Below the pieces are notes generated by a model. The model saw only the letters and a program-made list of their open reading frames with translations. It was not told the DNA's origin and did no database searches. A DNA stretch of 64,000 nt from Yuukianura sp. NJ FZ-2021 (taxonomy: Eukaryota), in assembly GCA_046563655.1 (NCBI GenBank), contig CM102287.1:2232001-2296000 (forward strand), written 5' to 3'. Made by a program: the position numbers and the translations under genes. Below, piece by piece: positions 1-37,720 of this stretch (positions within the stretch are counted from its first letter, which is position 1; every line of letters begins with the position of its first letter).

Positions 1-2394
1 ATTTTCAAAAATCAAAATGTTAGGGAGTATGAACAAGGCTTAACAACAAAATTTTCAAAAATCAAAATGTTAGGGAGTATGAACAAGGCTTAACAACAAA
101 ATTTTCAAAAATCAAAATGTTAGGGAGTATGAACAAGGCTTAACAACAAAATTTTCAAAAATCAAAATGTTAGGGAGTATGAACAAGGCTTAACAACAAA
201 ATTTTCAAAAATCAAAATGTTAGGGAGTATGAACAAGGCTTAACAACAAAATTTTCAAAAATCAAAATGTTAGGGAGTATGAACAAGGCTTAACAACAAA
301 ATTTTCAAAAATCAAAATGTTAGGGAGTATGAACAAGGCTTAACAACAAAATTTTCAAAAATCAAAATGTTAGGGAGTATGAACAAGGCTTAACAACAAA
401 ATTTTCAAAAATCAAAATGTTAGGGAGTATGAACAAGGCTTAACAACAAAATTTTCAAAAATCAAAATGTTAGGGAGTATGAACAAGGCTTAACAACAAA
501 ATTTTCAAAAATCAAAATGTTAGGGAGTATGAACAAGGCTTAACAACAAAATTTTCAAAAATCAAAATGTTAGGGAGTATGAACAAGGCTTAACAACAAA
601 ATTTTCAAAAATCAAAATGTTAGGGAGTATGAACAAGGCTTAACAACAAAATTTTCAAAAATCAAAATGTTAGGGAGTATGAACAAGGCTTAACAACAAA
701 ATTTTCAAAAATCAAAATGTTAGGGAGTATGAACAAGGCTTAACAACAAAATTTTCAAAAATCAAAATGTTAGGGAGTATGAACAAGGCTTAACAACAAA
801 ATTTTCAAAAATCAAAATGTTAGGGAGTATGAACAAGGCTTAACAACAAAATTTTCAAAAATCAAAATGTTAGGGAGTATGAACAAGGCTTAACAACAAA
901 ATTTTCAAAAATCAAAATGTTAGGGAGTATGAACAAGGCTTAACAACAAAATTTTCAAAAATCAAAATGTTAGGGAGTATGAACAAGGCTTAACAACAAA
1001 ATTTTCAAAAATCAAAATGTTAGGGAGTATGAACAAGGCTTAACAACAAAATTTTCAAAAATCAAAATGTTAGGGAGTATGAACAAGGCTTAACAACAAA
1101 ATTTTCAAAAATCAAAATGTTAGGGAGTATGAACAAGGCTTAACAACAAAATTTTCAAAAATCAAAATGTTAGGGAGTATGAACAAGGCTTAACAACAAA
1201 ATTTTCAAAAATCAAAATGTTAGGGAGTATGAACAAGGCTTAACAACAAAATTTTCAAAAATCAAAATGTTAGGGAGTATGAACAAGGCTTAACAACAAA
1301 ATTTTCAAAAATCAAAATGTTAGGGAGTATGAACAAGGCTTAACAACAAAATTTTCAAAAATCAAAATGTTAGGGAGTATGAACAAGGCTTAACAACAAA
1401 ATTTTCAAAAATCAAAATGTTAGGGAGTATGAACAAGGCTTAACAACAAAATTTTCAAAAATCAAAATGTTAGGGAGTATGAACAAGGCTTAACAACAAA
1501 ATTTTCAAAAATCAAAATGTTAGGGAGTATGAACAAGGCTTAACAACAAAATTTTCAAAAATCAAAATGTTAGGGAGTATGAACAAGGCTTAACAACAAA
1601 ATTTTCAAAAATCAAAATGTTAGGGAGTATGAACAAGGCTTAACAACAAAATTTTCAAAAATCAAAATGTTAGGGAGTATGAACAAGGCTTAACAACAAA
1701 ATTTTCAAAAATCAAAATGTTAGGGAGTATGAACAAGGCTTAACAACAAAATTTTCAAAAATCAAAATGTTAGGGAGTATGAACAAGGCTTAACAACAAA
1801 ATTTTCAAAAATCAAAATGTTAGGGAGTATGAACAAGGCTTAACAACAAAATTTTCAAAAATCAAAATGTTAGGGAGTATGAACAAGGCTTAACAACAAA
1901 ATTTTCAAAAATCAAAATGTTAGGGAGTATGAACAAGGCTTAACAACAAAATTTTCAAAAATCAAAATGTTAGGGAGTATGAACAAGGCTTAACAACAAA
2001 ATTTTCAAAAATCAAAATGTTAGGGAGTATGAACAAGGCTTAACAACAAAATTTTCAAAAATCAAAATGTTAGGGAGTATGAACAAGGCTTAACAACAAA
2101 ATTTTCAAAAATCAAAATGTTAGGGAGTATGAACAAGGCTTAACAACAAAATTTTCAAAAATCAAAATGTTAGGGAGTATGAACAAGGCTTAACAACAAA
2201 ATTTTCAAAAATCAAAATGTTAGGGAGTATGAACAAGGCTTAACAACAAAATTTTCAAAAATCAAAATGTTAGGGAGTATGAACAAGGCTTAACAACAAA
2301 ATTTTCAAAAATCAAAATGTTAGGGAGTATGAACAAGGCTTAACAACAAAATTTTCAAAAATCAAAATGTTAGGGAGTATGAACAAGGCTTAAC
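1..2394. repeat. 50-bp tandem satellite, ~48 apparently identical copies (ATTTTCAAAAATCAAAATGTTAGGGAGTATGAACAAGGCTTAACAACAAA), running off the window start
   Basis: Exact 50-nt period visible line after line; the array ends at ...GGCTTAAC|CTTTAT near 2394. Confidence 0.99.
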
Positions 2395-2544
2395 CTTTAT
2401 AGAGCTTTTGGACATATCTCAAACCCCCGACAACGGAATTTGTAATGCAAAATTTTCAAAAATGTCAAACACCAGCAAACTCCTGGCTATGGCCTTTCTA
2501 ATGCAGAATATTGAAAATATAATACAGCATCGGCATGCTCAACA

Positions 2545-3750
2545 AAACGTGAACTTGTGAAAAAATTGAGAACTTTGAAAAAAAAATTGACTGCGGGAAA
2601 AAATAAAGTTCTGCATGTAAAATCAACTTTGAAAAAAAATGATGGGAAAATAAAATGAACGTAAGATGGGAAACTAAATTGAACTTTGACAAAAATGACG
2701 GTGGGAAAATGATGAAGGTGGGGATATAGAATGAACTTTGAAAAAAGAATGACTGGGAAAAAGATGAAGGTGGGGAAAGAAGACGGTGAGAAAATATATT
2801 GAACTTTGAAAAAAAATGACTGTGGAAAAAAAATGAATATGGGAAAATATAGTGAACTTTGAAAAAAAAATGACTATTGGAAAAAATGAAGGTGGGGAAA
2901 AAATGACGGTGAGAAAATAAATTGAACTTTGAAAATAATCAACATCGGAAAAAAATTAAGGTGGGAGAAAAAAGTGAACTTTGAAAAAAATGACTGTGGA
3001 AAAAAAATGATGTTGTGAAAATAAAATGAACTTTGGGGAAAAAATGACTATTGGAAAAAATGAGGGTGGGGAGAAAATGACGGTGGGAAAATTAATTGTA
3101 CTTTGAAATAAAAATCAACGTCGGAAGAAAATGAACATGGGACAGACAGTAAAATGAACTTTGAAAAAAAAATGAATGTGGGAAAACAAAATGAACTTTG
3201 AAAGAAAAACGAGCGTGGGAAAAAACTAACCGTGGGAAACTAAAATGAACTTTGAAAAAAAAACGGCCGTGAGAAAAAAAAGGCGTGGGAAAACATAGAC
3301 CGTGGGAAAAAATAGATCGTGGAAAAATAAAATGACCTTTGAAAAAAATGAACTTTGAAAAAAAAGAGCGTGGGAAGATAATAGCATTATAAAAATAAAT
3401 TGAACTTTAAAAAAAAAGACCATGGGAAAATAATAAGCGTGGGAAAATATAGACCATGGGAAAATAAAATGACCTTTGAAAAAAAATGACCGTGGGAAAA
3501 TATTAAGCGTGGGAAAATAAAATGACCTTTGAAAAAAATGAACTTTGAAAAAAAAAAGCGTGGGAAGATAATAGCGTTATAAAAATAAATTGAACTTTAA
3601 AAAAAAGACCGTGGGAAAATAATAAGCGTGGGAAAATATAGACCGTGGGAAAATAAAATGACCTTTGAAAAAAAATGACCGTGGGAAAATATTAAGCGTG
3701 GGAAAAAACAGACCGTGGGAAAAAGTACTTTGAAAAAAATTGAACTTTCA
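2545..3750. repeat. Degenerate A-rich minisatellite built from TGAACTTTGAAAAAAA and (C)GTGGGAAAA motifs, with a ~190-bp higher-order duplication
   Basis: Dozens of motif copies; 3320-3510 is nearly repeated at 3510-3700. Confidence 0.9.
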
Positions 3751-3940
3751 ACAAAAAATTTATTTAATTTTTATTTTTCTATTTTTTTTACTACCCTTCC
3801 CCCCCGCCCCCACCTCTTCCCTAGCCCCCAAAACCCCCCCCAGCCCCCCCCCCCGCAAGCAGGGTGAGACTGGGGGGGAACGGGGGCTAGGGGTGGGACC
3901 TAATAGCTAAGAGGCGTGCATAAATAGCCACAATGTGTAT

Positions 3941-4020
3941 ACCGGCGGGTGGACTCGAACCACCGGCCATAATGCAAGCAGGCTTGTGCAGGAGCCTCTA
4001 CGCTATTATGCCTTCACCGA
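3941..4020 (-). other. tRNA-like segment (perfect T-arm/B-box); possible pseudo-tRNA or tRNA-derived SINE head
   Basis: Minus strand reads GGTGG-TTCGAGT-CCACC (plus 3948-3964): 5-bp stem with a TTCGA loop. No convincing acceptor stem or D-arm. Confidence 0.35.
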
Positions 4021-4519
4021 AATGGAAGGCATCAAAACTTGTATTTATGTTCTGTTTTTTGCCAAAAAATGATGTTTTGGGCAAAAAAAAGTGCCAAAAT
4101 CCACCGATAGGCGTGATTTTGGTATCAAAATCAATAAAATAATTCATCCCCGATTTTTTAAAACCAAATTCGGGGCTCTACAAAACGTTTTCGAAACGTT
4201 ATTAACGTTTTTCTGACGTATTTCGCAGCTTTTGGATTTTTTCGGTGTGGCGCATACCTCAACTCTGCAGACTCCACCCCTTTTTGCAGTTTTCAAGCAA
4301 GCTGCCAAACCGATTCAAGGTCAGGGCATTTTATTTTTTATGAAAATTAAAACTTTTAATTAATTTTCGAACGTAGTACACTTATGTAAGCACTACGTAC
4401 TAATTGGATTCTGATTCCATTAACTAGTTCCTGAGAAAACTAATTTTAAAGTGCGCAATTTTGCACAAAAGTTTGTAATGTCACAAGTGCAGAACAATAG
4501 GCACAAATTACTTTAAAAC

Positions 4520-5130
4520 GTTATTTTAAAACTCCGGAATACGTTATGCGGCAAAGATCGAATCAATTACAAGTCGAGATAACGTATTACATAATTTTAA
4601 TTTGCATAATTACCGAGTAATTAAGCAAAAACTGAATTTGGGGACAATAGACGTTAATTAGGTTAATTATGTAAATTAAAATTCAGGAATACGTTATACG
4701 GCAAAGAACTAATCGATTACTAGCTGTGCTAACACATTTCAGGATTTCAAATCGATTACTTGCGGAGTAATAAGCAATCGTAGCTATCGCAAGTACTTGC
4801 GATCAAGGGTAAGGTCCAATAGTAAAAAACAATTAAGCTAATTAAGCAGTTTAAAACTCCAGAATACGTTATACAGCTAAGAACTAATCGATTACAAGCT
4901 GTCACAACACATTTCAGCATTTTAAATCGATTACTTTCGGAGTAATCAACAATCGTAGCTATCGCAAGTGCCTGCGATCATGATTTTGTTATAATAGTGA
5001 AAAATTAAGGTAATTACACACGCTAAAACTCTGGAATACGTTATATCACAATGAATACATTAGTAGTTGTGTGAGATAACAAATCCCGGAGGTTTGGATG
5101 CTTTAATTAACGAGTAATTAAGTAATTAAT
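4520..5130. repeat. Four diverged ~150-175-bp tandem units
   Basis: AAAACTCC(G/A)GAATACGTTAT-like anchors near 4527, 4677, 4853 and 5025; units 2 and 3 share AATCGATTAC and AATCGTAGCTATCGCAAGT. Confidence 0.8.
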
Positions 5131-5599
5131 TTAATTAAAGTTAATTTGCCATTTTTAGGGCAGTTGAGTGTGAGGCGCCGACCTCTACTCAAAATTTTCA
5201 ATTTTGTTATTCCGAGTGCGCGCATGCGCCAGCTGATTTTCTTTTAAAAATTAAACATTTCAGTTGTTTTGTTCATTTCTTCCTTCTAATTAAGTGTTAA
5301 GTTGACGATTAACTAATTAGTTGAACCGATTAACTAAGTTTTAGTGATTCTACAACCAGCACAACTAGAATTGAAGCTGGATGAAGTGTTTTTCAAAGGA
5401 TTAAGGTAAGGAACAACAATTAAAGTCAAGTAAAAGTAGTGGACTGGATTCCAGTCATTTTGTCATCGGTTAATCTCATAGTTTGGACATTTCTTTCTCC
5501 AGATCCACACTCCAAGGACGAACGTTTGATTGGACTTCCAGGCGCATCGTCCTTTCTTCTCGAAATTGACGTTTCGATGTGGAAATAATGCGGAAGTGG

Positions 5600-5800
5600 C
5601 CAGTAGACATCTCATGCTTAACAGAATCTGGAACTGCCTCTCAGCCTCTCCTCGCTTACTTCATGGAGAAGAACGCAAGGAACAGGAAGGTAAGGTACGA
5701 AAATCAACCAAATACAATAACATAAGATGTAATTGACTGCCATAATTCCATTGTTTTGGATTATGGAGCATGTGACAGTCAAATATAAAGAGATTCCATG
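5600..5800 (+). pseudogene. CTDNEP1: Short CTDNEP1/Dullard 5' fragment (first copy)
   Basis: The intron and exon start at 5690-5800 (IMEHVTVKYKEIP) are paralogous to 6092-6203 of the longer Dullard pseudogene. Confidence 0.6.
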
Positions 5801-6159
5801 ATTTTGTTTCATTTTTGATTTGCAGGAGGAACTGGAGGAAGGTGCAGCGGAAATGAAGAATTCGGCTCTGCCTGGAGGGACTTCTCGTTCCAAGAACTTA
5901 GTGTCTCCCTGTGACATCAATCTCCTGTCTTCAGTGGGCATTCCCTTCAAACCATTTGTAAGATTGTGACAAGATGAGTGTAATTAGTTGAATATTGATC
6001 GGTTTATTCTTTACTAGGACTAGAAGTTAGCACTTTCCTGGTCATTTGGACACTGGACGACGGAAGGATGCTGGAAAATACAACTAACGAGGTAAGACAC
6101 CGAAACAACCAAATCCAAACACATTATGTAATTAACTGCCTCATTTCTTTTCTTTTTAG

Positions 6160-6847
6160 ATTATTGAGCATGATGCGAGGCAGTCAAGTATAAGGAGATT
6201 CCAGTGTGAACTTTATCCAAGGACAGGCTGTCAGCTGTTCGGAGAAAAGTACTCGGACTGGATCTGGACGAAGCACTCATCGATTCTCATCACGATGGAG
6301 TTCAAAGGTGCTGTCTGGAACTCTTTTAACTTTCATCTTCATCAATCTCTACTTTGTTTAGGGAAAGCGTTAAGCCAGGTACACTCCTGCCTTTATACTC
6401 AAAGTGACGATTGAGCGACACCCAGTTCGGTTTTTCGTCCACGAATGACCACACATCGACTACTTCCTGGATGTCGTAAGTTTGAATGCATAGACTAGAC
6501 AACATGCATGATAACATGAACAATTCCTTTGCATAGGTTTCCAAATGACTGGAATTGGTCGTGTTCACTGCCTCAATGGAGATCCACGGTGCAGGTATGT
6601 TTATTCAGATTTAAAGTGGAATTTGAAGTAGGATATCTAAGGGATAAAGTTAATTAAGTTGTTAATTTGAAAACAGGAGTTGCGGATAAAGTGGAGAAGG
6701 GGAGGAGGATGCAGGAGACGAGATACTACCGACAACCCTGTACTCTTGACTTGGGTTCCTATGCGAATGATCTGTCCAACATTTCCCATGAGATTAGCTC
6801 CATATTTCTTCTGGACAACTGAGCAGAAGCCTATCTCTCTTACCCGG
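6160..6847 (+). pseudogene. CTDNEP1: Unprocessed CTDNEP1/Dullard phosphatase pseudogene
   Basis: Manual translation over four exons: [23 protein letters not shown] / [29 protein letters not shown] / VSK*LELVVFTASMEIHGA / RYYRQPCTLDLGSY...IFLLDN*. Matches the Dullard DLDETLIHSHHDG family; has several stops and frameshifts and lacks the 3' exons. Confidence 0.9.
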
Positions 6848-6909
6848 GTAACTTAACCTCAACAGCTGATTCAATCCAAATGATTTTTGAATTGGTTCTG
6901 TTTTTACAG

Positions 6910-7713
6910 GGCAGAGAAAAGGGTAACCCGAGGAGAAGAGGAGGTCAATTGCAACTAAACCAGCGTAAGTGAAGTGGCCATCATAAGATTAAGTTCGATT
7001 AGTAATTGATTGTTTTCTGTTTGTAACTCTGCTCCTCCACCCACTTTTAAAAGTTCCATTGGAGCCAGTGGTGTCGAGAGTGGACGCAATTCTGCCTACT
7101 AGTTGCGGATTTTGACGAAGATTGTGAAGCATCTGAGAACAAAGTTCCAAGAAGGGACTCGCCGTTGTCAGTGGAGGAAATCCTGGATGAAACCAATCAG
7201 CTGGATGTGAGCAACAAGTTAGAGGCGTAAGTTGACCTTCACTTGACCCTCAACATCAAGTCAATACTCTGCTATTCAAGTTTCTAAAACTTGTCATTCT
7301 TTTCCAGTGGCTTATCCAGGAAGGCTTTTCGAATCACCCGAAGATCGAGCGAACTGAAGACAGGTACATTTTCCAGCCCCAACTGCGATGTCGGGATAAG
7401 AAGTCGCTGCTTAGACTCCTCAGACTGCACGACATGAAGGGCCTCAGTGGAATTTTCCGTGAAGATGTACTGGAATCTGTGCCCCATGCAGAACGAGTTC
7501 TAAAAGTGAGTCCACTCCACTCTTACTAAAATCAAAATTTAAGTTAGTCGTAATTTCGATAAAAACCTAAGTAATTGAATTTCGTGTTTGGCTAGGCACT
7601 GGATTCTGAGATAATCACACTCACAAAGACAGGACAAGAAGAAAGTGGTGTTTTTTCGGGACAAGACAGCTCGTGTGGTGGTGGACGAGGAATTTCAGAA
7701 ACTGTGGCGCTAA
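6910..7713 (+). pseudogene. GTF2E2: Unprocessed TFIIE-beta pseudogene
   Basis: ILTKIVKHLRTKFQEG/(frameshift)DSPLSVEEILDETNQLD; WLIQEGFSNHPKIE...CRDKKSLLRLLRLHDMKGLSGI; (+1 frameshift) [11 protein letters not shown]...[10 protein letters not shown]. Matches TFIIE-beta. Confidence 0.9.
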
Positions 7714-7724
7714 ACCACAGTTTA

Positions 7725-8012
7725 GGTTGAGCTGGGCCGCGGCCCAGCCCCAATTACTAAGTTTTTACTTCTTTTTTGGTTGTTACAGTTACATCCAATA
7801 CTCAACGATTGCTGCCAGAGTAGTACGAACTGCATTGAAGGCTGAAGCCAGAGCAGAGGCAGCTAAACGAGAAGAATGCCTAAGCAAATTTACAACATGG
7901 AAGGATGGGAAGCCCATTGGTGAGTTATTCAATTGACACTAAATTCATAAAGAACCGAATTATTCATGTTAATTAATAAACTTGTTTTTGTGTCACAGTG
8001 AGTCAAGATTAG
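7725..8012 (+). pseudogene. ATP5F1E: Mitochondrial ATP synthase epsilon (stunted-like); exons 2-3 intact, exon 1 lacks an ATG and a donor
   Basis: YIQYSTIAARVVRTALKAEARAEAAKRE...KFTTWKDGKPI|VSQD* (7789-7919, 7999-8012). The upstream LSWAAAQPQ resembles a decayed MxxWRAAG exon. Confidence 0.75.
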
Positions 8013-8757
8013 TTTAAATTCGGATTGGAAAATGAAGTAATGAAGATTGGGATTCATCTAAAACCAAAGAAGATCTACATTCGTCATCTTGTCCTCGTGA
8101 ACTCCAACGAGCCGAACCCAATCACCTAATACATTGAAAATTGATAGTCGTCCTTTGTAAAATACCAATTAAAATGATAGCTCACTGAAATCTTTTTCTT
8201 TTTAGAATTTTTTAGTCAATTTTTTTGCTACTGTATTAAGATTTTGTTGTTTTTTTTTCGCTATTGTTTGAACAAAATTTTGTCATGGTGGGATTTGGGA
8301 TGGGGCAAATTGAGACGGTGAGTTTGGAACGAAGCGCGGCAAGACGTTTTCAGAAAACCACCAAACAGATTACAGCTCCTCCTCCCTTCTCTGTCCATCT
8401 CATCTGTTTGTGGCGTACTTTTGTCGGTTGATTTTTAGGTGGGAGATTGCTACAGAGAAAGAAGATAAAGAAGCTCCGTTTGTTTTGTATTTCTAGAGGT
8501 CACTTTTGTACGAACGATCATTCAACACTCAACAGTCACCTTCCGCACTGGACGCTGCTGGAGTGTGAGACACTTTTTATGCTAACATTCAATTTCTGGA
8601 ACTCATCGCTGTTACCCTTTTACTCTACGCATTCGCCCCTCGTCGTGTGACGCTTCGCACTGTGGCCGGTTACAAGAACGGTAAGGTAATTTAGACAAAG
8701 GAATTTAGTAGGAGAAAGAGGTTTTTTACAAAGTTAAGGTGAAACTGTGTGTAAAGT

Positions 8758-10551
8758 ATGAATCTTAATGTAGACAGGGAAACAGCCACAGGAACCCGAC
8801 TTTCTAACATGGAGCGAGTGGACGATGAACTACATATTGACTACGACTCAATTGAGGCACCGCAATTCGTGGATTTCCATGCTCTCAGTATGATTAATGA
8901 TGACGAGGAGGATCCGGCTCTCAAGTTTTTTGAAGTCAAAGAATACGTGGATGACAAGAAGGAAGATTTTGATTTGCAAGTAGTCGACGAGCGTCGAAGT
9001 TCAGATGAGATTGACAAGGACCAGGAACAGGATGCTGTCATTCCACTTGCAGGAGATGATGAAGGAAAAGATGCTGTTGCTGATGCTGAAGATCGTCCGA
9101 TCGAAATTTGCCGCGGTGATGCAGAACAAGTCGGGAGTCTCCCGGTAGCACCGGCAGCTGATCAAGAGCCTGTCCCGCCACCTCATGCTCCCATTGCTGA
9201 AGAAGTTGAGAATATCGAAAATGTTGATCCAGTTTCAGTTCCTGTAGCGGATGAGCTCGTTCCTCTCGTAGTCGTATCGCCAGAGCATCAGGAACAAGAA
9301 CAACAACCACTGGTAGCAGTTGGACAAGCGCTGAACGAAGTTGAAGTCGAGCATCCACTTCCCCGTGCTGCCCCTGCACCACGAGTTAGGAATCCTGCTG
9401 TGATGCCTTCAGCAATTCCACGAAAACTCGTCAGCACTGCCACTGGTCTCACTGTTCCTAAGCAGGTTCACTTTCACAGTGCCCGACACCGTCCAGCTGA
9501 TCACCCTGCTCCTGCTGTGAGTAATTAACTTAATTAAAACTTAATTAACTTATAAAACGAGTCAAGTCTTTACTTACTAAACCAGTCATTTCTTTTTAGG
9601 ACAAGAAAGATGTTGGACCTGGCTTCAGAGCTCGTCCAGCTCCACTCAAAGTTCTTCATGGCGGACCAACCGGACTCAAGGACAAGCCTGAAGTGAGAGC
9701 AACTGTTGCTGTTGCACCGCATTTCGCTTCTGATGATCGCATCCGCTCGGGACGCATGAGGGCTTCTCAAGCTGTAAGTCAAGTCAAATCTACAAAATGT
9801 AAAAATAAAATGGTTGATGTGGTGCCCCTGCCCGGTGCCATATTAGTCTGTTGCTTGTCCTCAAATATAAGGTTTGTGTATTCTTTTCATTACAGCCCAC
9901 AGCAACTGTCGGAGTCAAAGAAAACTTGGATCCAAAATCTGGAGATGCTGCTGCTGCTGGGAGTCACCGTGGGGCATTTCGGTCTGGGTCTGTGCCATCT
10001 ACTCCTGTTTGTGGCACCAACAGTTCTGGACGTGGGCGATCTCCGTCACCAGCAATGATTCGTAATGCGGAACGCGACAACGCAAGGAAACGGCTCATGG
10101 ATGAGAAATTGCGGAAACAGGTTCGTTGAGTAGTATTTTATAGTAACAGTTCAACGCCTCAGAAAGAATGTAAAACTAAAAAATCGCTTGAGCGTGAACA
10201 GATGATTCTCATGCCCAAAGATCATGTATCAAAATTCTCAAGCGATTTCAAAATTATTATTAACCTTTACGCACTCATGCATGTGTTGTTTTTAATTGTT
10301 AACTAAACTTTTTTTTTTAAACTTTGTTCCAGGATGAAACAAATCGTTTGCTCATGGAACAAAAACAGGCTAAAGAACTTCGGGAGCAGTTGGTCCACAA
10401 GCCGCAGCCAATAAAAGGGACGCGACCGTTTCAAGTGAAACATTCGGACAAGACACTGACCAATCCAATCAGCCCAGAATTTGCTCCACTGCCGTCGCAG
10501 CGTCGTAATCTGCAGCAAGTCCAACGTGACAAGATGACGGCTCTACAGTAA
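8758..10551 (+). CDS. TPX2: TPX2-like spindle assembly factor (4 exons: 8758-9516, 9600-9773, 9896-10120, 10333-10551)
   Basis: N-terminal YDSIEAPQFVDF...FFE resembles the Aurora-A-binding motif; FRARPAP...GGP; C-terminal KELREQLVHKPQPI...SDKTLTNPISPEF. Phase-0 GT-AG joins keep the frame. Confidence 0.8.
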
Positions 10552-10660
10552 GAAATACTGGCATATCCAATCAATTTACATGTTAAGGCCAAGGAATTTA
10601 CATCTTTAACGTCATTAATACGGTGATAATCATTGTAGCCTCAATTCGGTGTTCGGAGAA

Positions 10661-12238
10661 ATGGCTGCAGAGACCGAGGTCAAGAGTATCTTCCCTCGTA
10701 CGTTGGGGTCAACCCCTTCATTTCTCATAATCAATCTGCAGGATGAAGTCGTCCGTTCCGAAGCAGCAGAAAAGAAGGGTCTTTGGAGAGGTCTGGACAA
10801 GTTGAGTATACTCGTAAAGAAGATCGAAGTAAGTGGAATGTACAGTGTTGTTTCAAATGGATTTGTGAATTTAAAATAAACCAGTTTCTTCTGACTTTCT
10901 CTCTAGTACCTAGGCGGTGACGCCATTTTACTTAGAAACGTACAGGAGGTCAGGAATGGATCTGGCATCCCACTGGCCTTTGTGTCAACTAATATCGCAC
11001 ACAATGAGCTCGCGTTTAAGACATGGCTCCACATGGCAGATCAACATGGTCGCTGTTTTGATATCTTTCATGAGAACTTCATCCATGACATATTCGAATT
11101 GGGACAAGTTGGACTCCTAGAAGACTATTTGTAAGTAATTTGGCAAAAATGCTGCGTTAACGTAGTAATCCCGATTTTGATAGGCAGAACTACGATTTAA
11201 GACAGTCATATTCTTTGTAGGCTAAAACCGTCGATGTTCAAACCTGGAGCTTACACTGGACAACAGATCCTGTCAGGAAAATTCAAATGGAGAAACTTTG
11301 CCTTCGACAAAGATGATTCGGATTCTTCGTCTTCAGAGTCGGAAGTTGATCGTTACGTTAAGTTTCGTAACAAATCTCGAGTCACACTTCGACAATCTAC
11401 TCCTGCCTTAGTCACGCCGGTACCGACCAACCCGGCATGCACGTCAAACTCTGTTAAGCAGGAGGCTTCCTCTGATCGTGATGCAACTCCTGAAACTTTG
11501 GACGACTTCGACTTGAACGACCCAAGTTCCTTGCTATCTCTAAATCTCAATCAACACGAATCAGACAGCATGAGTACCTTCCAAGAGAGAGATGTGGGTT
11601 CCCACCATGGGATGCTGACACGAGCTAGAGCCAAACGAACTGCAACTGGCCCGAGGATATTGGATTCGCTACCCACTGACAGAGCTCGTCGTGTGAACCC
11701 TATCCGAGACTCACCACCGGCTTCTCCTCCTCCTCCTAATCGGTAAGGTTGAATGATTATTTCAATTTCAATAGGAAGAATGTAATATCGCTGTACCCGA
11801 GTGCTAAAGAATTTACTTTTGAAATTTTGAACAGCAAGAACCGTGGAGGAGCATCTCGTCGGACAAGGCTGCCGAACCTAAACCCGGAGGATCAGCAGCA
11901 AATACTGAATTACATCATTGACAATAATGCATTCTATCGGATCAGGGGGACAAAGCTGTACAAGGAGATGGCCGACTCCAACGTAAGCCAGCATTACAAT
12001 GCACAAGGCGGAGGTGGAGCGGGATCTACTAACCTAACTTTAGTACCTAACCACGTACAGGACCATATCAATCAATGTCATGTTTCCTTCTTTTTTTCTG
12101 TAGATCGTTTCAGGACGTACTTATCCGACTCTTCGTTGGCATATGATAATGATTCTTCTGCGTCGCGACGTTTTTGAGAAATTCGGTCGTTGCATGGACC
12201 CAACTTCCCGTGCCACGTTTGAAGAGTATCTTGTTTGA
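10661..12238 (+). CDS. TERF2IP: Rap1/TERF2IP-like protein, BRCT + Myb, with no recognisable C-terminal RCT domain (5 exons)
   Basis: BRCT-like KIE|YLGG...FHENFIHDIFELGQVGLLEDYL; Myb-like EDQQQILNYIIDNNAFYRIRGTKLYKEMADSN|IVSGRTYPTLRWH. The spliced frame is open to TGA at 12238. Confidence 0.65.
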
Positions 12239-12946
12239 CAGGTTTGTAACTTTTTTCCCAAATTAATATTTCTCTTATTTCTCTCTTATTTTACTTCCAA
12301 CCCTCCAAAATTCTAACAACAAATCAATAGAATCAACAAAACGTTAGGAACCTAAACCTAAAACCTAAACTACAACAAGAAACTTCCTGCTTTTATTCTG
12401 AAAGTACAACGCTACTAGCACGCAGCCCAACTTTTTAGAAACTTCTAAAGCAGAGACTGATTTTTTTTATTTTTAGAAAACTCCAACGCTCAACTACTCC
12501 AGGTATCTCAAGGAACTAATCACATTCAAGTGAATCAACTAATGAACTTCATAATTTTTAATAATGACGATTCAATCAATCAGTGCTAAAATCCGTCAAG
12601 TTTTTGCGTTTGACAATAAACTCTTGTTTTGCAAAATTTCTACACTCTTCCACACCCAAACCTTGGAATCTGAAACGTGGAAATTGTAAAGATTAGCTTT
12701 AATTCGTGGTCACAAACCCCTAAGGAAAATTTTCACTCATCATGCCATTTAAAAAGTTAACAAAATCCCATGTTAGCTCTCCCAATCATTCTTCTTTTAA
12801 TTCCCTTCTCAATTGTCGCAGTACAAAAAGAGGAATACAATGAAACCTAAGTTAGGTAATTAATTAGACTGTAGAGGATGAGAGGTTAGCGTTACTAACT
12901 TACACATAATCTCTTGTAACTTAACATTCAAATACGCATGCGGAGT

Positions 12947-13888
12947 TTAAGGGTGAATCGTGTTTCGTTTCTTTTTGGTGAGGTCCACACGAGCGTAGAG
13001 ATTGGTGACATTGTCGTCGAGGAGCGGAGTAGGACCATCCACTGCCTCTGCTACGCATGGACTCTGGCCACTCGACTCCTTCCTTTTGTCCAAGTCCTCG
13101 GCAGACTCCTGGAGTCGTTCATAGGGCGGTGTGTACTTGACCTGTTCGTACAAACTCCCGTCTTCATCAGACTCCGGAGGAAGGGCGGGTGGGAGACAAC
13201 TGGAACCATCCTCACTCTCTCCTTTCCGCTTGATCTTTTCATAGCCATGTTTGAGAGCACTTGGATTCCCATGAGTGGGCAGAGGGGGGCCCTTGACCTT
13301 CTCATACATTTGGTCCTCTTCATCCTCCTCCTCAGACTCCTCGGCTCCTCTGCGCCCAATCTTCTGGTAGACGTTGTTCCTCTCTCCGATTTGTTGGTTG
13401 TAGTCCGTGGGACTTCTGTTGGTCAGTGCTGTGTAGGGATGGTGGGCTGGATCCTTCCAACTGTCTCCACTCCGCTCCTCCACCTTGGAGTAGTGCCCAT
13501 CTTCAGTCCTGGAATGGACAGTTGTGTCCAGAGGAGGAAGTGGGGGTGGAGCACAAATTTCAGCATTGGGATGATGGGGGATGGTGTTGGTGGTCGTTGG
13601 ATAGGGGAGTGTTCTGCTGTAAGAAGCGATTGGGACGCTCTCAGGCCGCCGACGAGAAGGAAGGCGGGATGTCGTTCTCACTTCGGCCACAATGTTGTAG
13701 TTGTCTTGATCCAGAAGGTCCACTCCAGTGGAGGTTGTTGGTTTGGAAGCAAAGGGGGCCTCTCGAATCACTTCGAATTCAGAGTAATTAATATCAGCCT
13801 TTGACCACCGTCGAATCTCTGCGCCTCCTTCTGCCGCATCCGACGGAGTGTGATTGTGTCGCTTGTGAGATGAAGACGAAACACTCAT
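12947..13888 (-). CDS. Intronless 313-aa disordered protein with many YxxV/I/L motifs (SH2-docking adaptor-like)
   Basis: Open ORF containing YSKV, YTAL, YQKI, YEKV, YEKI, YEQV, YERL and LYARVDLTKK plus PxxP tracts; no transmembrane segment or signal peptide. Confidence 0.6.
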   Translation of the reverse strand: MSVSSSSHKRHNHTPSDAAEGGAEIRRWSKADINYSEFEVIREAPFASKPTTSTGVDLLDQDNYNIVAEVRTTSRLPSRRRPESVPIASYSRTLPYPTTTNTIPHHPNAEICAPPPLPPLDTTVHSRTEDGHYSKVEERSGDSWKDPAHHPYTALTNRSPTDYNQQIGERNNVYQKIGRRGAEESEEEDEEDQMYEKVKGPPLPTHGNPSALKHGYEKIKRKGESEDGSSCLPPALPPESDEDGSLYEQVKYTPPYERLQESAEDLDKRKESSGQSPCVAEAVDGPTPLLDDNVTNLYARVDLTKKKRNTIHP

Positions 13889-13958
13889 CCATTCTCATCA
13901 CGATCCAGTTCAAAAGTACTGTCTGGAACTCGTTTAACTTTCATCTCCATCAATCTCA
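13870..13958 (+). pseudogene. CTDNEP1: Third CTDNEP1/Dullard fragment (exon end plus intron start)
   Basis: Encodes DETLIHSHHDPVQK, followed by a sequence highly similar to the intron at 6308-6349. Confidence 0.8.
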
Positions 13959-14149
13959 GGACCACATGAAGTGACGGATTCAAAGAGATAAAAATGGACT
14001 GGAAAGAAAGCGCCACAAATAAAATGGAAATGAGAGGAATGATTGGTTCGGAGTTTGTGCTTTATTCATTGGCTGCAATGGGAGATGTAGTGTTGACCAT
14101 GTGAACTGTTGATTGTGGGACTGAATTTCTTAAGGGCTCCGGTCGTCAG

Positions 14150-16761
14150 TCACGGTTTGTTGGAAGAGTTGGGTGGTTGATTTCTCTTTGGCGGGCGAGG
14201 TTCCTGAGGCCGCCATCCGTTGGGGATTGGATGATAGGTGGGTCTTGGATGGGGAGACCAAGGAAGGGACACATTCCCACTCCCCCGTCCATACAGTCCG
14301 CCCCACCCCCACGACTCAGCCGCTTCCGCCCAACGACCCAGGCCAGACCCACCACCCCGCCCCCAACTCCCCTCTCCACCCGAACTCCACACCCACGGCC
14401 AACCTGCAAACAAAAGAAACGTTGTACTGACGTTGAGGGTTTTGTTGAGAAGGAACAAGACCTCTGCGTTAGAGACACTTCTGAAGTGAGGTTGTGGTGG
14501 AATGTGCTGGATCCACGAATGAGACTCCACCAAGTCCCCACCCACTGACCACCATCACCCAAGCAGCACAAAAGTTTCAAACAATCTTAGCCCGAATCCC
14601 CATCTAAACTTCAACTTGGCCCCCCCTTCGAAGGGGACTTGGGACTAAAAGAGTGAAAGTGACTTACCAAAGTCTCCTCTGCCCATTGGTCCCCCACGCA
14701 TCACCCCTCTTCCTCTCAGTCCCAGTGGAGGCACAATTCTACAACACAGCGACATTAGACAGGACAAGGAAAGTGAAGCGACTCCCACTTACGCCATGTT
14801 CCTCTGCTGGGCCATGGCTGCCATCATTCTGCGCTCTCTCGCTCTGAGCACTTCCTCCTTTTTCCGTTTGTCAGATGGAGGTTTGGCCAGTGAAATGTCA
14901 ATCAGGGACCCACACACTTCCTTCCCACTCAAACTCTGCAGAGCACTCTCCGCTGACTCACGACTCTCGTAGTGCACAAAGGCGTAATCCTAAACAAATG
15001 AAAGTAAAGTGAGCAGTTCTCAAAGTGAAACGATCTCTCCAATCCTAGTCCTTACTTTGATTTTCTTGACTCGATCCACATGTCCATGAGCCTCAAACAC
15101 TTCCTTGAGCCTCTCCTCGCTCACATCCTGCGTCAGATTCCTTACGTAGAGCACTTTCACTTTGGCCATCGTGTCTTCATCTGGTTCCTCCTGAGGGTCA
15201 GCCCAGTCCACTGCAAAACAACAACAAATGAGACCAAAGACAGAGGAGAGGAGACTGAGAGTTACCGATGATGTCTGAGCCCCACACTTTGACTCGAGAG
15301 GTGCCGAGTCGTCGCTTGGCGAGAGACGCTGATTTGTGAGACTCGTACTCTAGGAAACAGAACCCTCGATTCTTCTTCCTGTCGTCCGGTGAGCTGTAAA
15401 TGATGATCTCCTTCAATCCCGCTGAAACAATCAGGCCATCATTAACTTTGTTTCATAAAGGAATAAAGTGACTTACGAGCGTGTTTGGAGAACTCTTCGT
15501 ACAGTTCGTGTTGGTCTCTGTTTTTGGGGATGTTGCCTACAAAGAGACGATGATTATTGTACGAAATGGTCACTCCGATCTTCTTCCCCTTCCGAACTTC
15601 ATGGTCATCCAGCTAAAAAGAGAACCAAATGGTTGGAATGTGCCTAAATGAAATGGACGTAGAACTGACCTGTTTGACAGCCTGTTGAGCACCTTCCTTG
15701 TTTGTAAAAGTCACAAAAGCGTAGCCTCGATTCAAGCCAGAGGCAGCGTCCCTGCATTAAAACCACTTTTGGTTACTGCCTTTGAAATAGTTGATTTGTA
15801 AGATTTTACATCATGAGTCTCAAGTCCCAGATGACGCCGCATTTCTCAAACAGAGGGATCAACTCATCTTCGTACATGTCCTTTGGTATTTTCCCACAGA
15901 AGATCTAGAGCACAACCAAAATACTGCTAAGTTGCCAGGAGACTAGAGTTAAGATAGAGGTGACTCACTTCACATCCGATGCCAGGCTGATATCCCTCCC
16001 AGTTTGGTGGTGGGCCTCCGTACTTCCTTTGTCCCGTCGTCACGTCGAGCGAGTAGCCAGTTCTCTCCAGCACTGCTCGGATTTTGTCTTCGTCAGGACC
16101 CTTCCCACTGCAACAAACAGTTTTATAGACTCAAGTAAAGGAGGCAGTTGTTGGTGACTTACTTTTGGAGTAAATGTGTCGTGACAGACTGACCAGATCG
16201 GAGTTTTTGTCTATATGTTTTCATGACTCCGCAGAGATAAGCGGACTTGTTGGAGACATGCTCCAGATTGGAGTCCAGGAACTGCTTAAGCACCCTGCAA
16301 TTAGCACACCTTTACAATTAGAACACTGGAGAGGAGGAGGGGACTTACGCCAGAGCCCCTTCCACTGGGAACTCCTTCAGGGCATCCAGGGCCCTCTCGT
16401 CCAGGTCACTGTGCGCCAACTTCCCTAAACACAACACAATCGTTAGAGAAGGAAAGGGGGAGACAAGGTCAAGGGCTACCTGTGTTGTACACTTCGTCCA
16501 GCTTCCCAGCCACTTTCTCGTCCACTGAAAACACAAAACACAGTCAGACAGTGTTCATCCACTACTCAACAGTCACTTACGCCCGTAGTCGATCAGTTTC
16601 TTGTAGTCAGCTGATGGACCACTGCCACTCTCCGTCCCACCTTCCCCTCCTCCACACAACTTCAAGTCCTCCAGCTTAGAGGTCAACGTCTCCACGGAAG
16701 CCCCACCCACAGCCACACCATCCCCACTCAGAGTCACCTGTCCATTCCCACTGCTAGCCAT
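14150..16761 (-). CDS. SYNCRIP: Syncrip/hnRNP Q/R RNA-binding protein (acidic N-terminus, 3 RRMs, Trp/Gly-rich tail)
   Basis: [77 protein letters not shown] across many short GT-AG introns. Confidence 0.95.
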
Positions 16762-17899: not shown

Positions 17900-18979
17900 T
17901 CCCCTCAGATGTCGCCACCAACTCCAACTAAAAACAAACATTGTTCATGAGCTGATTTAGAAACTTGGTCCACTGCTCAACTATTAGGATTTAATAAACT
18001 TACCTCTCTCGTCCTCAACACTCAAATAAGGGGCCCACGGGATAGTAGACACACAGGCACTTGCTACAACATGAATTACAAGGATTAGTTAAATTATATT
18101 TCAATTAGTTGGGATTAGAGGTAGGGACTGTTGTCAACTAACAGATTCAACCTCTCATACCAATTAATTAAGTTTAATTAAGAATAAATTGATTACCTGT
18201 CTCTTCTTTCGTCTCTCCTTCATTCATTTGAGATTTGGAAGTTCCAGTTTAGTAGTTGTTTTGACAATTGAATTTTTGAAATGAGTTCCCGCACTTTTGT
18301 CTCAAGTTCAAAACCTAGAATTGTCTAATTCTGAGGTAACCATATGAGCAGCTTCTGTTGTTTTCCTAGGATTAGCCTCCAGCAGAGGAGGAAACTTGGT
18401 TAGCTTTTCGGTCCGCACTCCTGGTCGAAATTCACATAAATAGTGGAGAGGAGTAACATCCAACTCCTCTCACTCTCATATAAAAGGGAACACGAACCAA
18501 AATCTCCTCAGACCACAACGAAAAGAACAAAAACTAGAGTTAGTGACTGATTAAATGAGTAACTTCCAACTGAATTTGAATTGATTAGGAATATTAGTAA
18601 CTCCTGTGTTTGATATTTGTGGTGATTAATTGATTCGTGGTTCAGATGACAAATGAGAATGGAGTAGACGGAGAGTAACTTAATTAGATTCTTCCAATCT
18701 CCAATTAAGTGCTAAGGTTGTGTTGATTAAATTCAATTGATCGGAGTAACGGGAAGTTTATTGAGAGGAAGGAAAGCGAACTGAACAAGGGTAAGTGTCT
18801 AATCTCAAAACGTTTGACTTATCCGAGTATCCCACTAACGAATCACTTATTTTAGTGAGGTGAAGAGGGAATACTTGGGAGAGTGCCGTTGGTCGTTCGT
18901 TGGGTCACTCATCTGGACCATCCTGGGGAAGTACAAGTGGAGGAGGAGCAGCAGCGGTGGTCACCACCACCCTCTCAAA

Positions 18980-29773: not shown

Positions 29774-29962
29774 AGTTAACCTAACCAGGCTCATCCCTAA
29801 CTTTTTCCTAACTTTAAACTTTGAACAATGTAACTTTCCTATTCTCTATGTTACAATATACAAATGTGGACTAATTCCAGAGAGAGTCCTCAGAGTGGAG
29901 CCAAGAGGGGGACTTAAGGAATACAAAATAAAGATGGTTAGATGCTTACTGGAGTTGGAGTG

Positions 29963-31536
29963 TTAGATTTTCTTCCAGGAGTAGTACATTTCCAGTGGTT
30001 TGTTGAATCTCCAGAACTTCTCACAAACTTGTGCCAACGTGTGGTTCTGCGGGATGGTCGTGAAGGATCCGCCTGTGGGTGACACGTAGATTGTGCAAGT
30101 GTGGAGATGAGCAGGAGTATCAAGATGCGAATCCAGAGCCAGCCGCATGCCCAAGTATCTCGCCAAATGCTCCACCTATCCAACAAGCGTTATTTTCACT
30201 TTTTACCATATTTCAAGTCATTTTCAATTCTTTCCCGCAAAAAATAGGAAGTGTGCATTGCATTTCGGTTGGTTTAAATGAAATTTTACATGATTGCAAA
30301 ATGTAGAAATGGATCTTACTGAGGCATTTGCGGTTGTCTTGATGTAGCGTGTTTGGTTCTGTGCTGTGGCCAAGGCAGCAGCACTCGTTCCACTGATCAT
30401 GTCTGGATGTGGTTTGAACACGAGTTCAACTTCAGTCACTTCCTCCGAGTAACCTGCAGTTTCCAAATTCAAGTTAAAGTTAAAAATCAAAGTAAGTCGG
30501 AACTTACATGAAGTGTTGGATGAGTTATCGACGGCTGATTCTGTTCTGCTCATTTTGGCTGGGCTGGGGACGACGTGGCTGTTGGAGGGCGTGTTTGGTC
30601 CGAGTGCAGAAGTGCCTCCCAGTCCTTGCGGAGTGCTTGGCACAATGGGCAGTACATTGGGTGGCGGTGTTGTGCTGGAGGAGTTTGGTGGGTTGGAGGG
30701 AATCGTTCCGTCAGTGTCTCCATTCCCCTTGTGCACTTTGATTTTCTTGTGGTGGCTTGACTGGGCTCGCAGCCCTTCTTCAATGGAGGATGCAAGTGCG
30801 AGTTGGTTGTGGGACTTGGACAACCTTGCCATTGCCTTCTGCTGCTGCAATTCGTACTCATCCCTGCCAAATAATCACAATTTAACAAAAATGGAATAAA
30901 AGAGAAAGGAAAGTGGAAAAGTACCTCGACGGGTAGATTTTGGAGATGAGTTGGTCAAAGTTGGGGTCATGACGAAGTGACCTCTTGGAGGCGAGTTTCT
31001 TCCTGCATGTGGGACACTCCTTGTTGCCGGACCGAAGAGCTGTGACGATACACTCTGAGCAGAATCTGTGGAGACACTCTTTCGTCGTCATCGTGTTGTG
31101 GAGCATGTCGAGACAGATGGGACACATCAATTCCGAGTGAAGGGCCCTCGGAGAGACTGCAATTTCGGACCCATCCGTCACTGCCTCTTGTGGCGTTCTG
31201 TGCAGTTCGTAGTCCTATCATGCCAAAACAATAAGTGGATCAGAAATCAATGGAGATTAGAATGTCTTACGCTCAGTTCCCATGTCTTGGCTGTGTTGAC
31301 TGGTGGGACAGGAGTGGTGGTGGCCAAGCTGCTTACATTCCTCCCTCCAAGTCCACCGGCAGTATTCGTGGGTGTAGTCGTCACTCCTGTCTGTGATGGT
31401 GCAGTATTTGCCTAAACACAAATCAAACATCACTTGACAATCAGTCTTTTTTCATGGCATCTGCCATATAACTTAGAGTAACGATATTCTGATCAGTAGA
31501 GGATACAAAACTTACCCCAGCCATTGGCATTTTCAT
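29963..31536 (-). CDS. RNF2: RING1/Sce PRC1 E3 ligase (RING + RAWUL)
   Basis: [83 protein letters not shown]. Confidence 0.96.
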
Positions 31537-32169
31537 TGGAGTCCACACTCCCTCCCTTCCCACGCACTTGTGACCTCAGCCGATTCTCTAACTCGACCCT
31601 TAATTAGTAATCTGACCTCCTAATAATCCCACTGTGAAGGACCAATCCCTTTGTTTTGTTCCCTTCTTTTGTCCCTCCCGCGTCCTCAGGTTCTTCTAAA
31701 ATGCACTCAGCAAACAACGATCACAACAATCGTCTTCTGCAAGGAAATCCTAGGTACTTTACTATCATGTAATTCTTCTCAGTCTCGTGTACTTGTCTAT
31801 TTATTCAATGACCATACAATGAATACGAAAAAGTAATATTTCACAAACTCAATATAATCAAAATGCTAATTTCACTTTGAAACGAACAGCTCAGTGCTTT
31901 CCAAATTACTAATACATTCTTGAAGCCCAACTGTGCCAGCGTGTGAGTCCCAATGTGTAATGAAGGTGAGGTTTGACTCAAACCCCTGCCCAGTCCCATA
32001 CCCAGTCTATGCCATACGTCATAATAATAGACACACGAAAATTAGCAAAGACAAAATCGCATGTTGCGCAGCAACGCGATTAAAGACTATGACAGCGTCA
32101 CCAAGCATAGTTGCCCATTAGGATGGTTATTGATGCTGTGATTATTTCTAGAAATTTGCAGCCTACCAA

Positions 32170-35100
32170 AGGGAAAGGGTCACGGGCTACAAAGCTATGA
32201 ATGTCGCCATTTGATCTTATGACGACCGCATGCAAGTAGCATATCGTTGGAAAGGGCTTGACTTCCTGATTCAGAAAATGTATATATGTTGCTATGTGTG
32301 ACGTAAGACATGGCTACTCTGGAGATTTACAATTTTTGTATAGAAAAGTCCATAAGGAGGAGTTTGCCGAAGTTGTTTTTTGACAAAACTAAATGAGAAC
32401 GTTACTTTTTTCGAAATGAATAAAATTCGAAGCAATTGTCAGGGAAGATGTTGTGATGATTTGTACCAATTTTCAGCCCTCCAGAAGCAAAGGGTAAAGT
32501 GTGACGGGGGTACAAATGACGTCATTTGATCTTATGACGACCGCATGCAAGTAGCATATCGTTGGAAAGGGCTTGACTTCCTGATTCAGAAAATGTATAT
32601 ATGTTGCTATGTGTGACGTAAGACATGGCTACTCTGGAGATTTACAATTTTTGTATAGAAAAGTCCATAAGGAGGAGTTTGCCGAAGTTGTTTTTTGACA
32701 AAACTAAATGAGAACGTTACTTTTTTCGAAATGAATAAAATTCGAAGCAATTGTCAGGGAAGATGTTGTGATGATTTGTACCAATTTTCAGCCCTCCAGA
32801 AGCAAAGGGTAAAGTGTGACGGGGTACAAATGACGTCATTTGATCTTATGACGACCGCATGCAAGTAGCATATCGTTGGAAAGGGCTTGACTTCCTGATT
32901 CAGAAAATGTATATATGTTGCTATGTGTGACGTAAGACATGGCTACTCTGGAGATTTACAATTTTTGTATAGAAAAGTCCATAAGGAGGAGTTTGCCGAA
33001 GTTGTTTTTTGACAAAACTAAATGAGAACGTTACTTTTTTCGAAATGAATAAAATTCGAAGCAATTGTCAGGGAAGATGTTGGGATGATTTGTACCAATT
33101 TTCAGCCCTCCAGAAGCAAAGGGTAAAGTGTGACGGGGGTACAAATGACGTCATTTGATCTTATGACGACCGCATGCAAGTAGCATATCGTTGGAAAGGG
33201 CTTGACTTCCTGATTCAGAAAATGTATATATGTTGCTATGTGTGACGTAAGACATGGCTACTCTGGAGATTTACAATTTTTGTATAGAAAAGTCCATAAG
33301 GAGGAGTTTGCCGAAGTTGTTTTTTGACAAAACTAAATGAGAACGTTACTTTTTTTCGAAATGAATAAAATTCGAAGCAATTGTCAGGGAAGATGTTGGG
33401 ATGATTTGTACCAATTTTCAGCCCTCCAGAAGCAAAGGGTAAAGTGTGACGGGGGTACAAATGACGTCATTTGATCTTATGACGACCGCATGCAAGTAGC
33501 ATATCGTTGGAAAGGGCTTGACTTCCTGATTCAGAAAATGTATATATGTTGCTATGTGTGACGTAAGACATGGCTACTCTGGAGATTTACAATTTTTGTA
33601 TAGAAAAGTCCATAAGGAGGAGTTTGCCGAAGTTGTTTTTTGACAAAACTAAATGAGAACGTTACTTTTTTCGAAATGAATAAAATTCGAAGCAATTGTC
33701 AGGGAAGATGTTGTGATGATTTGTACCAATTTTCAGCCCTCCAGAAGCAAAGGGTAAAGTGTGACGGGGGTACAAATGACGTCATTTGATCTTATGACGA
33801 CCGCATGCAAGTAGCATATCGTTGGAAAGGGCTTGACTTCCTGATTCAGAAAATGTATATATGTTGCTATGTGTGACGTAAGACATGGCTACTCTGGAGA
33901 TTTACAGTTTTTGTATAGAAAAGTCCATAAGGAGGAGTTTGCCGAAGTTGTTTTTTGACAAAACTAAATGAGAACGTTACTTTTTTCGAAATGAATAAAA
34001 TTCGAAGCAATTGTCAGGGAAGATGTTGGGATGATTTGTACCAATTTTCAGCCCTCCAGAAGCAAAGGGTAAAGTGTGACGGGGGTACAAATGACGTCAT
34101 TTGATCTTATGACGACCGCATGCAAGTAGCATATCGTTGGAAAGGGCTTGACTTCCTGATTCAGAAAATGTATATATGTTGCTATGTGTGACGTAAGACA
34201 TGGCTACTCTGGAGATTTACAATTTTTGTATAGAAAAGTCCATAAGGAGGAGTTTGCCGAAGTTGTTTTTTGACAAAACTAAATGAGAACGTTACTTTTT
34301 TCGAAATGAATAAAATTCGAAGCAATTGTCAGGGAAGATGTTGGGATGATTTGTACCAATTTTCAGCCCTCCAGAAGCAAAGGGTAAAGTGTGACGGGGT
34401 ACAAATGACGTCATTTGATCTTATGACGACCGCATGCAAGTAGCATATCGTTGGAAAGGGCTTGACTTCCTGATTCAGAAAATGTATATATGTTGCTATG
34501 TGTGACGTAAGACATGGCTACTCTGGAGATTTACAATTTTTGTATAGAAAAGTCCATAAGGAGGAGTTTGCCGAAGTTGTTTTTTGACAAAACTAAATGA
34601 GAACGTTACTTTTTTCGAAATGAATAAAATTCGAAGCAATTGTCAGGGAAGATGTTGGGATGATTTGTACCAATTTTCAGCCCTCCAGAAGCAAAGGGTA
34701 AAGTGTGACGGGGGTACAAATGACGTCATTTGATCTTATGACGACCGCATGCAAGTAGCATATCGTTGGAAAGGGCTTGACTTCCTGATTCAGAAAATGT
34801 ATATATGTTGCTATGTGTGACGTAAGACATGGCTACTCTGGAGATTTACAATTTTTGTATAGAAAAGTCCATAAGGAGGAGTTTGCCGAAGTTGTTTTTT
34901 GACAAAACTAAATGAGAACGTTACTTTTTTCGAAATGAATAAAATTCGAAGCAATTGTCAGGGAAGATGTTGTGATGAATTGTACCAATTTTCAGCCCTC
35001 CAGAAGCAAAGGGTAAAGTGTGACGGGGGTACAAATGACGTCATTTGATCTTATGACGACCGCATGCAAGTAGCATATCGTTGGAAAGGGCTTGACTTCC

Positions 35101-37660: not shown

Positions 37661-37720
37661 ACAACAAAGTTACGGCACAGTAACGAATGGAAAATTGATT
37701 GGAAAAAGTTTGGGCTAAAA

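Follow-up and report, generated by a model that had tools for sequence, protein, structure and literature searches.

How a run of broken housekeeping-gene fragments, all read in one direction and still carrying their introns, comes to stand near the end of an arthropod chromosome is the question raised by a 64,000-nucleotide stretch of the Yuukianura sp. NJ FZ-2021 genome (assembly GCA_046563655.1, contig CM102287.1; C5:2232001-2296000). This whole stretch is the window, and all window positions below are counted from its first letter. A sequence-only reading had described, on its + strand, a co-oriented chain made of a 5' piece of Dullard (CTDNEP1), an unidentified exon, a longer Dullard piece, TFIIE-beta and ATP synthase epsilon (ATP5E), and the order, strand and coordinates of this chain hold. 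The chain lies at a chromosome tip, includes a cassette common to other tips, is made of DNA-level copies from unlinked donors and bears one end-joining scar. We consider it likely that the chain is a subterminal duplicon mosaic, built by exchange between chromosome tips and by template-switching repair. The chain clearly documents how genes have been shuffled at the subtelomeres of a compact arthropod genome, probably that of a springtail, and its analysis points to an error of scaffolding and to two essential genes seemingly hidden in gaps.

Location of the chain at a chromosome tip

A scaffold gap of 100 N (C5:2222809-2222908) precedes the window by ~9 kb. Directly past it starts a (CCTAA)n telomere array of ~640 bp, the telomere repeat unit of this genome being TTAGG, followed by a 50-bp satellite that extends over ~8.4 kb upstream of the window and enters its first 2394 bases. 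The positions of the array and the satellite run therefore place the gene chain 14-17 kb from the telomere, and we infer from the gap that the tract is a terminal telomere. The repeat block once cast as the neighbour of a Helitron is this telomere-adjacent satellite. Telomere arrays stand right behind internal scaffold gaps of C5 at two places (C5:2222809-2223580 and C5:10588086-10588247), which is probably the result of mis-scaffolding.

Short-read contigs from four runs, three of them from a single sample that is possibly the assembly's own, bear out the joints: they span 6033-6362 without a difference and 7628-7809 with two, crossing the joints at 6069-6092 and 7712-7739. The same contigs hold two variants, 5% diverged, that cover 5744-6014, and an alternative joint, 7671-to-7976; alleles and paralogues look alike at this level. 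Summed contig depth over Dullard far exceeds that over ATP5E/TPX2, a figure that is no copy number and is not used as such, and no weight is placed on a gap in the cover of run X5 at 5896-6177.

A cassette shared by non-homologous ends

The segment 5150-8250 has 55 DNA matches, all of which lie at most ~160 kb from a contig end except three donor matches and the window's own. When overlapping and very short pieces are dropped, 26 places are left, and 22 of these point inward; one of the four exceptions faces inward relative to its own telomere tract. The copies stand near the ends of C1, C4, C5, C6, C7 and C8 and of two small contigs, that is, at non-homologous ends. Their common cassette, present at most chromosome ends, consists of satellite, 170-bp minisatellite, promoter and Dullard 5' exons, and it breaks off at 5333, 5472, 5799, 6710, 6716, 6782 or 6886, depending on the copy. 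Past these breakpoints the partners are RING, MBT, membrane-transporter, HSP70-type, RRM, acyltransferase and Fcf2 genes. The intron-to-intron joint of Dullard and TFIIE-beta is common to three other tips. Blocks common to non-homologous ends and a distance of <25 kb from a telomere tract are features of a subterminal duplicon mosaic, and the chain has both. Block identity, by blastn, is 95-96% for ATP5E/TPX2 and 76-88% for the remaining blocks, against a standard of at least 1 kb at >90%.

In one Dullard subfamily (C18:4886-5837, C5:10581879-10582740 and C7:10876-11983) the first four coding exons look undamaged and the DLDET motif is kept, with the next exon broken; by their sequence, these may be young copies or may encode a truncated protein. 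A RING-finger gene of the window (29793-31608), with CCTAA-like units at its 3' boundary, has a 94%-identical copy inside a Dullard cassette (C4:15413459-15415254).

Identity and state of the fragments

The gene identities first proposed for the chain are upheld. Sister-copy exons, 83-87% like the window's, match CTDNEP1 with 60 bits vs 26 for SCP1, and such exons match TFIIE-beta with E 4e-11; ATP synthase epsilon is matched by the window's own exon (E 4e-8). The exon at 5826-5957 lies where it had been placed, but it can be named: it is ATG16, 76% identical to C2:8678443-8678648, where the parent gene has Pfam ATG16 and WD40 matches. Both Dullard stretches exist as described, though not as separate pieces, being one copy that is split by the ATG16 insert, with ~110 bp duplicated. 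Nor does the chain end at 8012; it continues to ~12650 with a TPX2-like and a Rap1-like copy. HYOU1, RING1, Sfmbt, GPR155, hnRNP R, TPX2, Rap1 and NRF1 are names that we take to fit the underlying Pfam matches or motifs.

Frames in Dullard and TFIIE-beta are broken by stops and frameshifts, as had been claimed, whereas the ATP5E piece has no frameshift and lacks only exon 1. Splice sites persist: all 12 donors keep GT, and of the 13 acceptors only the one before 7027 has lost its AG; ten donors read GTAAG, GTGAG or GTATG, one GTAAC and one a weak GTGCT. The fully spliced product from Dullard to ATP5E has a longest ATG frame of 125 codons, and this part of the chain is non-coding. Every intron is retained in the chain, which shows neither the intron loss nor the poly(A) tail of a processed pseudogene. 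Introns and intergenic DNA in the pieces support the copying at the DNA level that had been proposed. Just upstream, GCGCATGCGC occurs at 5220-5229 as the single match in the window (0 in 100 shuffles), an element that we take to be NRF1-like. The 50 bp of promoter at 5199-5248 are 90% like the TCTP promoter that lies 8.5 kb from the ATG16 parent. A TCTP origin for the first exon of the cassette was considered and is too weak to claim (score 98 vs a shuffle maximum of 96, 0 of 300). A search for further donor micro-patches inside the window's Dullard copy gave chance-level matches besides the ATG16 bits.

Donor genes and their home sites

Intact parents were found for ATG16 (at C2:8.68 Mb, where the gene looks intact) and for ATP5E, but not for Dullard or canonical TFIIE-beta. 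The ATP5E and TPX2-like genes form one native block on C3 and were copied together; the donors lie on the separate scaffolds C1, C2 and C3, at 76-96% identity. The parents of ATG16, ATP5E/TPX2 and the Rap1-like copy are therefore unlinked and not syntenic, which excludes the single decaying segmental duplication of neighbouring genes that had been one proposal. Together with an assembly chimera, such a duplication is an extremely improbable source of the chain. The native ATP5E/TPX2 block, the old shared joint of Dullard and TFIIE-beta and the adjoining scaffold gap would suit one or the other, and both have to contend with the scattered, unequally diverged donors and with short-read contigs that bridge the joints and carry both the diverged variants and the alternative joint.

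Family searches of the genome for NIF returned only other phosphatases and broken tip copies; exon searches gave nine Dullard-type and eight TFIIE-beta matches, none of them an intact orthologue, and a PF18121 search of the genome, which had no match anywhere, is uninformative. The only full-length Dullard copy has a 3' flank that is 99% identical to C2:14352-15630, and the match stops exactly at the gap C2:14252-14351. Because this flank match runs into the gap, Dullard is probably the hidden last gene of one chromosome arm, likely the left end of C2. Only one NRDE2 5' region was found; it is at the C4 tip, where NRDE2 and a TFIIE-beta truncated by a gap (C4:9240-9339) lie tail to tail. The home sites of Dullard and TFIIE-beta are thus probably the C2 and C4 tips. 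Intact TFIIE-beta proteins that are 79-87% like a pseudogene exon exist in database records, the closest named match being that of Orchesella cincta (66%); this match and the TTAGG repeat suggest an arthropod, probably a springtail. One of the eight TFIIE-beta exon matches is a paralogue, 32% identical, at C4:15076822.

Joints and a proposed route of assembly

In the insert at 7712-7739, between TFIIE-beta and ATP5E, each flank is repeated in inverted form over 9 nt, with a summed match that none of 2000 shuffles attains. Judged from its letters, the insert is an end-joining scar of the kind produced by snap-back synthesis-dependent microhomology-mediated end joining (SD-MMEJ), as far as such products are described in PMC2943611. 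A 26-nt patch at 12343-12368 holds four telomere units where the parent has none, with a background of 0.9-2.4 units per kb. Telomere units in both orientations occur at copy-specific replacement and junction sites, namely this patch and C7 near 10139330.

The mosaic probably arose as follows. Broken chromosome ends would have been healed by copying a Dullard-bearing tip, and repair synthesis would have switched templates at microhomologies or been finished by polymerase-theta-type joining. The ATG16, TFIIE-beta, ATP5E/TPX2 and Rap1-like pieces would have been added in separate events, with later exchange between chromosome ends.

Orientation bias

A hand tally of distinct joints gives 15 of 20 as same-sense (P 0.021, or P 0.05 allowing for word bias); shared-word bias predicts only 51-55%. 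When gene-body joints are taken separately, a division introduced post hoc, 14 of 15 are same-sense (P 0.0005). The tally leaves out three pieces: two that read in the sense direction, one an unidentified exon (6710) and the other an RPL30-like stretch past a palindromic element, and an ambiguous one of 41 bp. In their home positions HYOU1 and ATP5E/TPX2 face inward, and ATG16, the Rap1-like gene and the RING gene face outward; in the cassettes each of the five reads in sense, whatever its home polarity. The same-sense excess most likely arose because reversed pieces behind an active promoter would give antisense RNA to essential genes and would be selected against.

Several of these results weigh against a mosaic made by tip exchange and template-switching repair. 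Plain repair would be expected to give random orientation rather than an excess of same-sense joints, and tip geometry alone fails to explain the bias because three of the five donors of known home polarity face outward. The templated signature occurs in only one of seven inserts tested. At its presumed C4 home site TFIIE-beta is itself broken, and the assembly yields no intact Dullard or canonical TFIIE-beta, the likely home sites of both adjoining gaps.

The bias is an argument for a repair process with a polarity of its own, in which the telomere-ward 3' end copies sense templates, either nascent unspliced RNA (by reverse transcriptase or polymerase theta) or the displaced R-loop strand at highly transcribed genes, so that pieces would arrive facing inward. 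Besides the gene-body joints, it would account for the reversal of three donors against their polarity at home (ATG16, the Rap1-like gene and the RING gene), for telomere units at some joints and for a braided gene copy elsewhere: at C7:10179800-10183800 (L104/L105) an MBT-repeat gene copy holds eight same-sense Dullard patches in perfectly colinear order, which plain repair leaves unexplained. Several of these patches are nucleotide-scale hybrids of both genes at weak look-alike sites, and a patch related to the braided copy lies at C15:219159. DNA templates are nevertheless favoured, because the copied material includes promoters, intergenic DNA and genes together with their tail-to-tail neighbours; no intron has been lost, and 5 of the 20 joints are opposed. 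An Rfam scan of 2300-14500 returned six weak hairpin matches and no hammerhead ribozyme, and no Penelope-type reverse transcriptase occurs among 150 open reading frames (ORFs) scanned (29 of the window's 55 ORFs and, from the tips, 120 of 192 clusters plus one more). The reverse transcriptases among these 150 are confined to a Pao long terminal repeat (LTR) element and one APE/RNase H non-LTR element. We regard polarity-biased repair as unlikely.

A broader form of the idea, likewise unlikely, is that chromosome ends in this arthropod are rebuilt by strand-biased repair that hops between sense templates from housekeeping genes, in the form of nascent RNA or R-loop strands. Such repair could braid two unrelated genes at nucleotide scale, would build inward-facing spliced chimeric units behind a tip promoter, and might occasionally leave duplicates that still work, as the TPX2-like and Rap1-like copies may do. 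The patchwork would gain in importance if the same-sense bias and the colinear braiding were upheld, since transcription would then seem to guide the choice of template in end repair.

The long non-LTR ORF, with endonuclease, reverse transcriptase and RNase H, lies at the C7 left tip (L117:5674-9465), and the Pao-type LTR ORF at the C5 right end (L125:782-5299).

Splice-site conservation and the open-frame copies

Among dead copies, splice GT/AG varies at 1 of 18 sites vs 78 of 243 control GT/AG (P 0.011), or at 2 of 19 once one mutated donor from copies outside the alignment is counted (P 0.036), a difference that plain repair does not explain. The spliced chimeric lncRNA suggested by the sequence-only reading gains modest indirect support from it. 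The conservation is weakened as evidence because the copies share descent and may owe some of their divergence to a working parent. At the level of function, and compatibly with a repair-built mosaic, the cassettes could form a family of spliced subtelomeric long non-coding RNAs kept by selection. The spared splice sites would fit this, as would the promoter, which is retained in the aligned copies; divergence at the parent stage could equally have spared the sites, one acceptor is dead in the window copy, and partners and breakpoints vary freely among ends. From sequence, such a family has only a small chance of being real.

In the TPX2-like copy (8809-10551) middle exons are deleted in frame, and the ratio of nonsynonymous to synonymous substitution rates (dN/dS) against the parent is 0.52 (P 0.002). 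Its divergence from the parent climbs from 5' to 3', which suggests recent conversion of the 5' part. The Rap1-like copy (10660-12238) has a dN/dS of 0.66 against its parent at L134:3589-5229 (P 0.03). It has no promoter of its own, its ATG lying 42 nt past the 3' end of the TPX2-like copy. Both copies keep open frames and GT-AG introns, which plain repair does not account for. For the Rap1 identity, the Pfam Myb_Rap1 match is weak and below cut-off, and a PDB search gave no confirmation. A palindromic foldback-type insertion in the TPX2-like parent (L064:6064-6944) is missing from the window copy, and a second such insertion occurs in a Dullard intron (L120, near C5:10581023-10581878).

Relation to known systems

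Helitron-style transduplication, the other origin first proposed, would make the chain a capture by a non-autonomous Helitron or Helentron, whose internal array would be the 170-bp minisatellite. The genome does contain intact RepHel ORFs (20 matches), and maize Helitrons are reported to carry unlinked gene fragments, 78.6% of them sense, in the part of that work available (bioRxiv 10.1101/777037). The five of the 20 RepHel loci that were compared share no blastn match with the window, the cassette copies are limited to tips and mostly inward, with no common 3' end, and 2400-14000 contains no hairpin-CTRR end in a scan that is weak because it detected ends in only one of five Helitron loci. 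A Helitron origin is very unlikely. Intron-bearing chains of host fragments with a sense bias are a point of likeness to Helitron capture, and attachment to telomeres is one to Terminons, so far as these are covered in the sources at hand (bioRxiv 10.1101/777037; PMC6431247). Unlike these elements, the window and tips yielded, within the scans described, no element ends, RepHel link, Penelope-type reverse transcriptase or hammerhead.

Human subterminal duplicon patchworks are the closer counterpart to a subterminal mosaic. According to the sections of PMC2323237 available, they are mosaics within 25 kb of the telomere with blocks of 7-22 kb at >90% identity, are shared between ends, differ by end and allele, contain gene-like pieces and are ascribed to tip translocations. 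By comparison with that account, the pieces here are smaller (0.05-3 kb) and more diverged (76-96%), derive from unlinked housekeeping donors, are joined within exons or introns and are mostly same-sense. DDX11L is likewise a rearranged part of a housekeeping gene spread over many chromosome ends, and as presented in PMC2705379 it is transcribed and derives from one gene, whereas here several donors are joined.

Subtelomeres formed by alternative lengthening of telomeres or break-induced replication, in C. elegans CB4856 (PMC6581047) and telomerase-null Chlamydomonas (PMC10620057), resemble the chain in that ends have received copies of internal regions and of other tips, with joints that show microhomology and short telomere tracts. 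Their blocks measure tens to hundreds of kb, and no gene-sense bias is noted in the portions of these two reports available. SD-MMEJ or polymerase theta joining, as outlined in the accessible part of PMC2943611, is matched by the inverted repetition of both flanks in the 7712-7739 insert; it accounts for that joint and not for kilobase captures. The open-access literature searched holds no description of such an arrangement, and the small pieces, the many housekeeping donors and the orientation bias set it apart from the subtelomere patchworks compared above.

Other features of the window

Table 1. Features of the chromosome-tip patchwork, in window positions.
Feature	Position	Strand
50-bp satellite, joined directly upstream to the telomere array	1-2394	
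AT-rich degenerate satellite, common to other chromosome tips	2560-3740	
GC-rich hairpin and stretch common to other tips; tRNA-like by eye, with no tRNA or Rfam family called for the region	3770-4200	
~170-bp minisatellite, ahead of the Dullard promoter at most tips	4490-5050	
Cassette promoter region with GCGCATGCGC at 5220-5229	5100-5340	+
Dullard/CTDNEP1 5' part: untranslated-region exon, start exon (stop at codon 4), intron, ~40 nt of next exon	5341-5799	+
ATG16 insert, three colinear bits: intron acceptor; exon 5826-5957 and its intron; WD40-exon end	5800-6068	+
23-nt filler, no significant flank match	6069-6091	
Dullard again, restarting in the intron of the 5' part with ~110 bp duplicated; four exons, broken; stops within an intron	6092-6889	+
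TFIIE-beta, intron 1 to mid last exon, broken	6890-7711	+
28-nt junction insert with one TTAGG unit; each flank copied in inverted form over 9 nt	7712-7739	
ATP synthase epsilon without exon 1; 96% to intact parent C3:13787947 (-)	7740-8200	+
C3 donor block carried on: intergenic DNA and TPX2-like copy, open 441-aa frame, middle exons deleted	8200-10617	+
Rap1-like copy from C1:8.30 Mb, begins at its ATG, open 398-aa frame	10660-12650	+
Patch of one TTAGG and three CCTAA units in place of parent sequence	12343-12368	
Tyrosine-motif gene fragment, no Pfam family; sister copy at C1 tip	12735-13880	-
Small Dullard piece, the third, joined to the first native gene (RRM gene, minus strand) at that gene's 3' end	13869-13957	+

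Two further repeats lie beyond the patchwork. A 315-bp satellite at 32200-37663 comprises 17.4 copies at 98% identity and has a related stretch at C7:14373. A promoter-like repeat, present at 18250-18600 and 54300-54900, sits upstream of many genes near chromosome tips.

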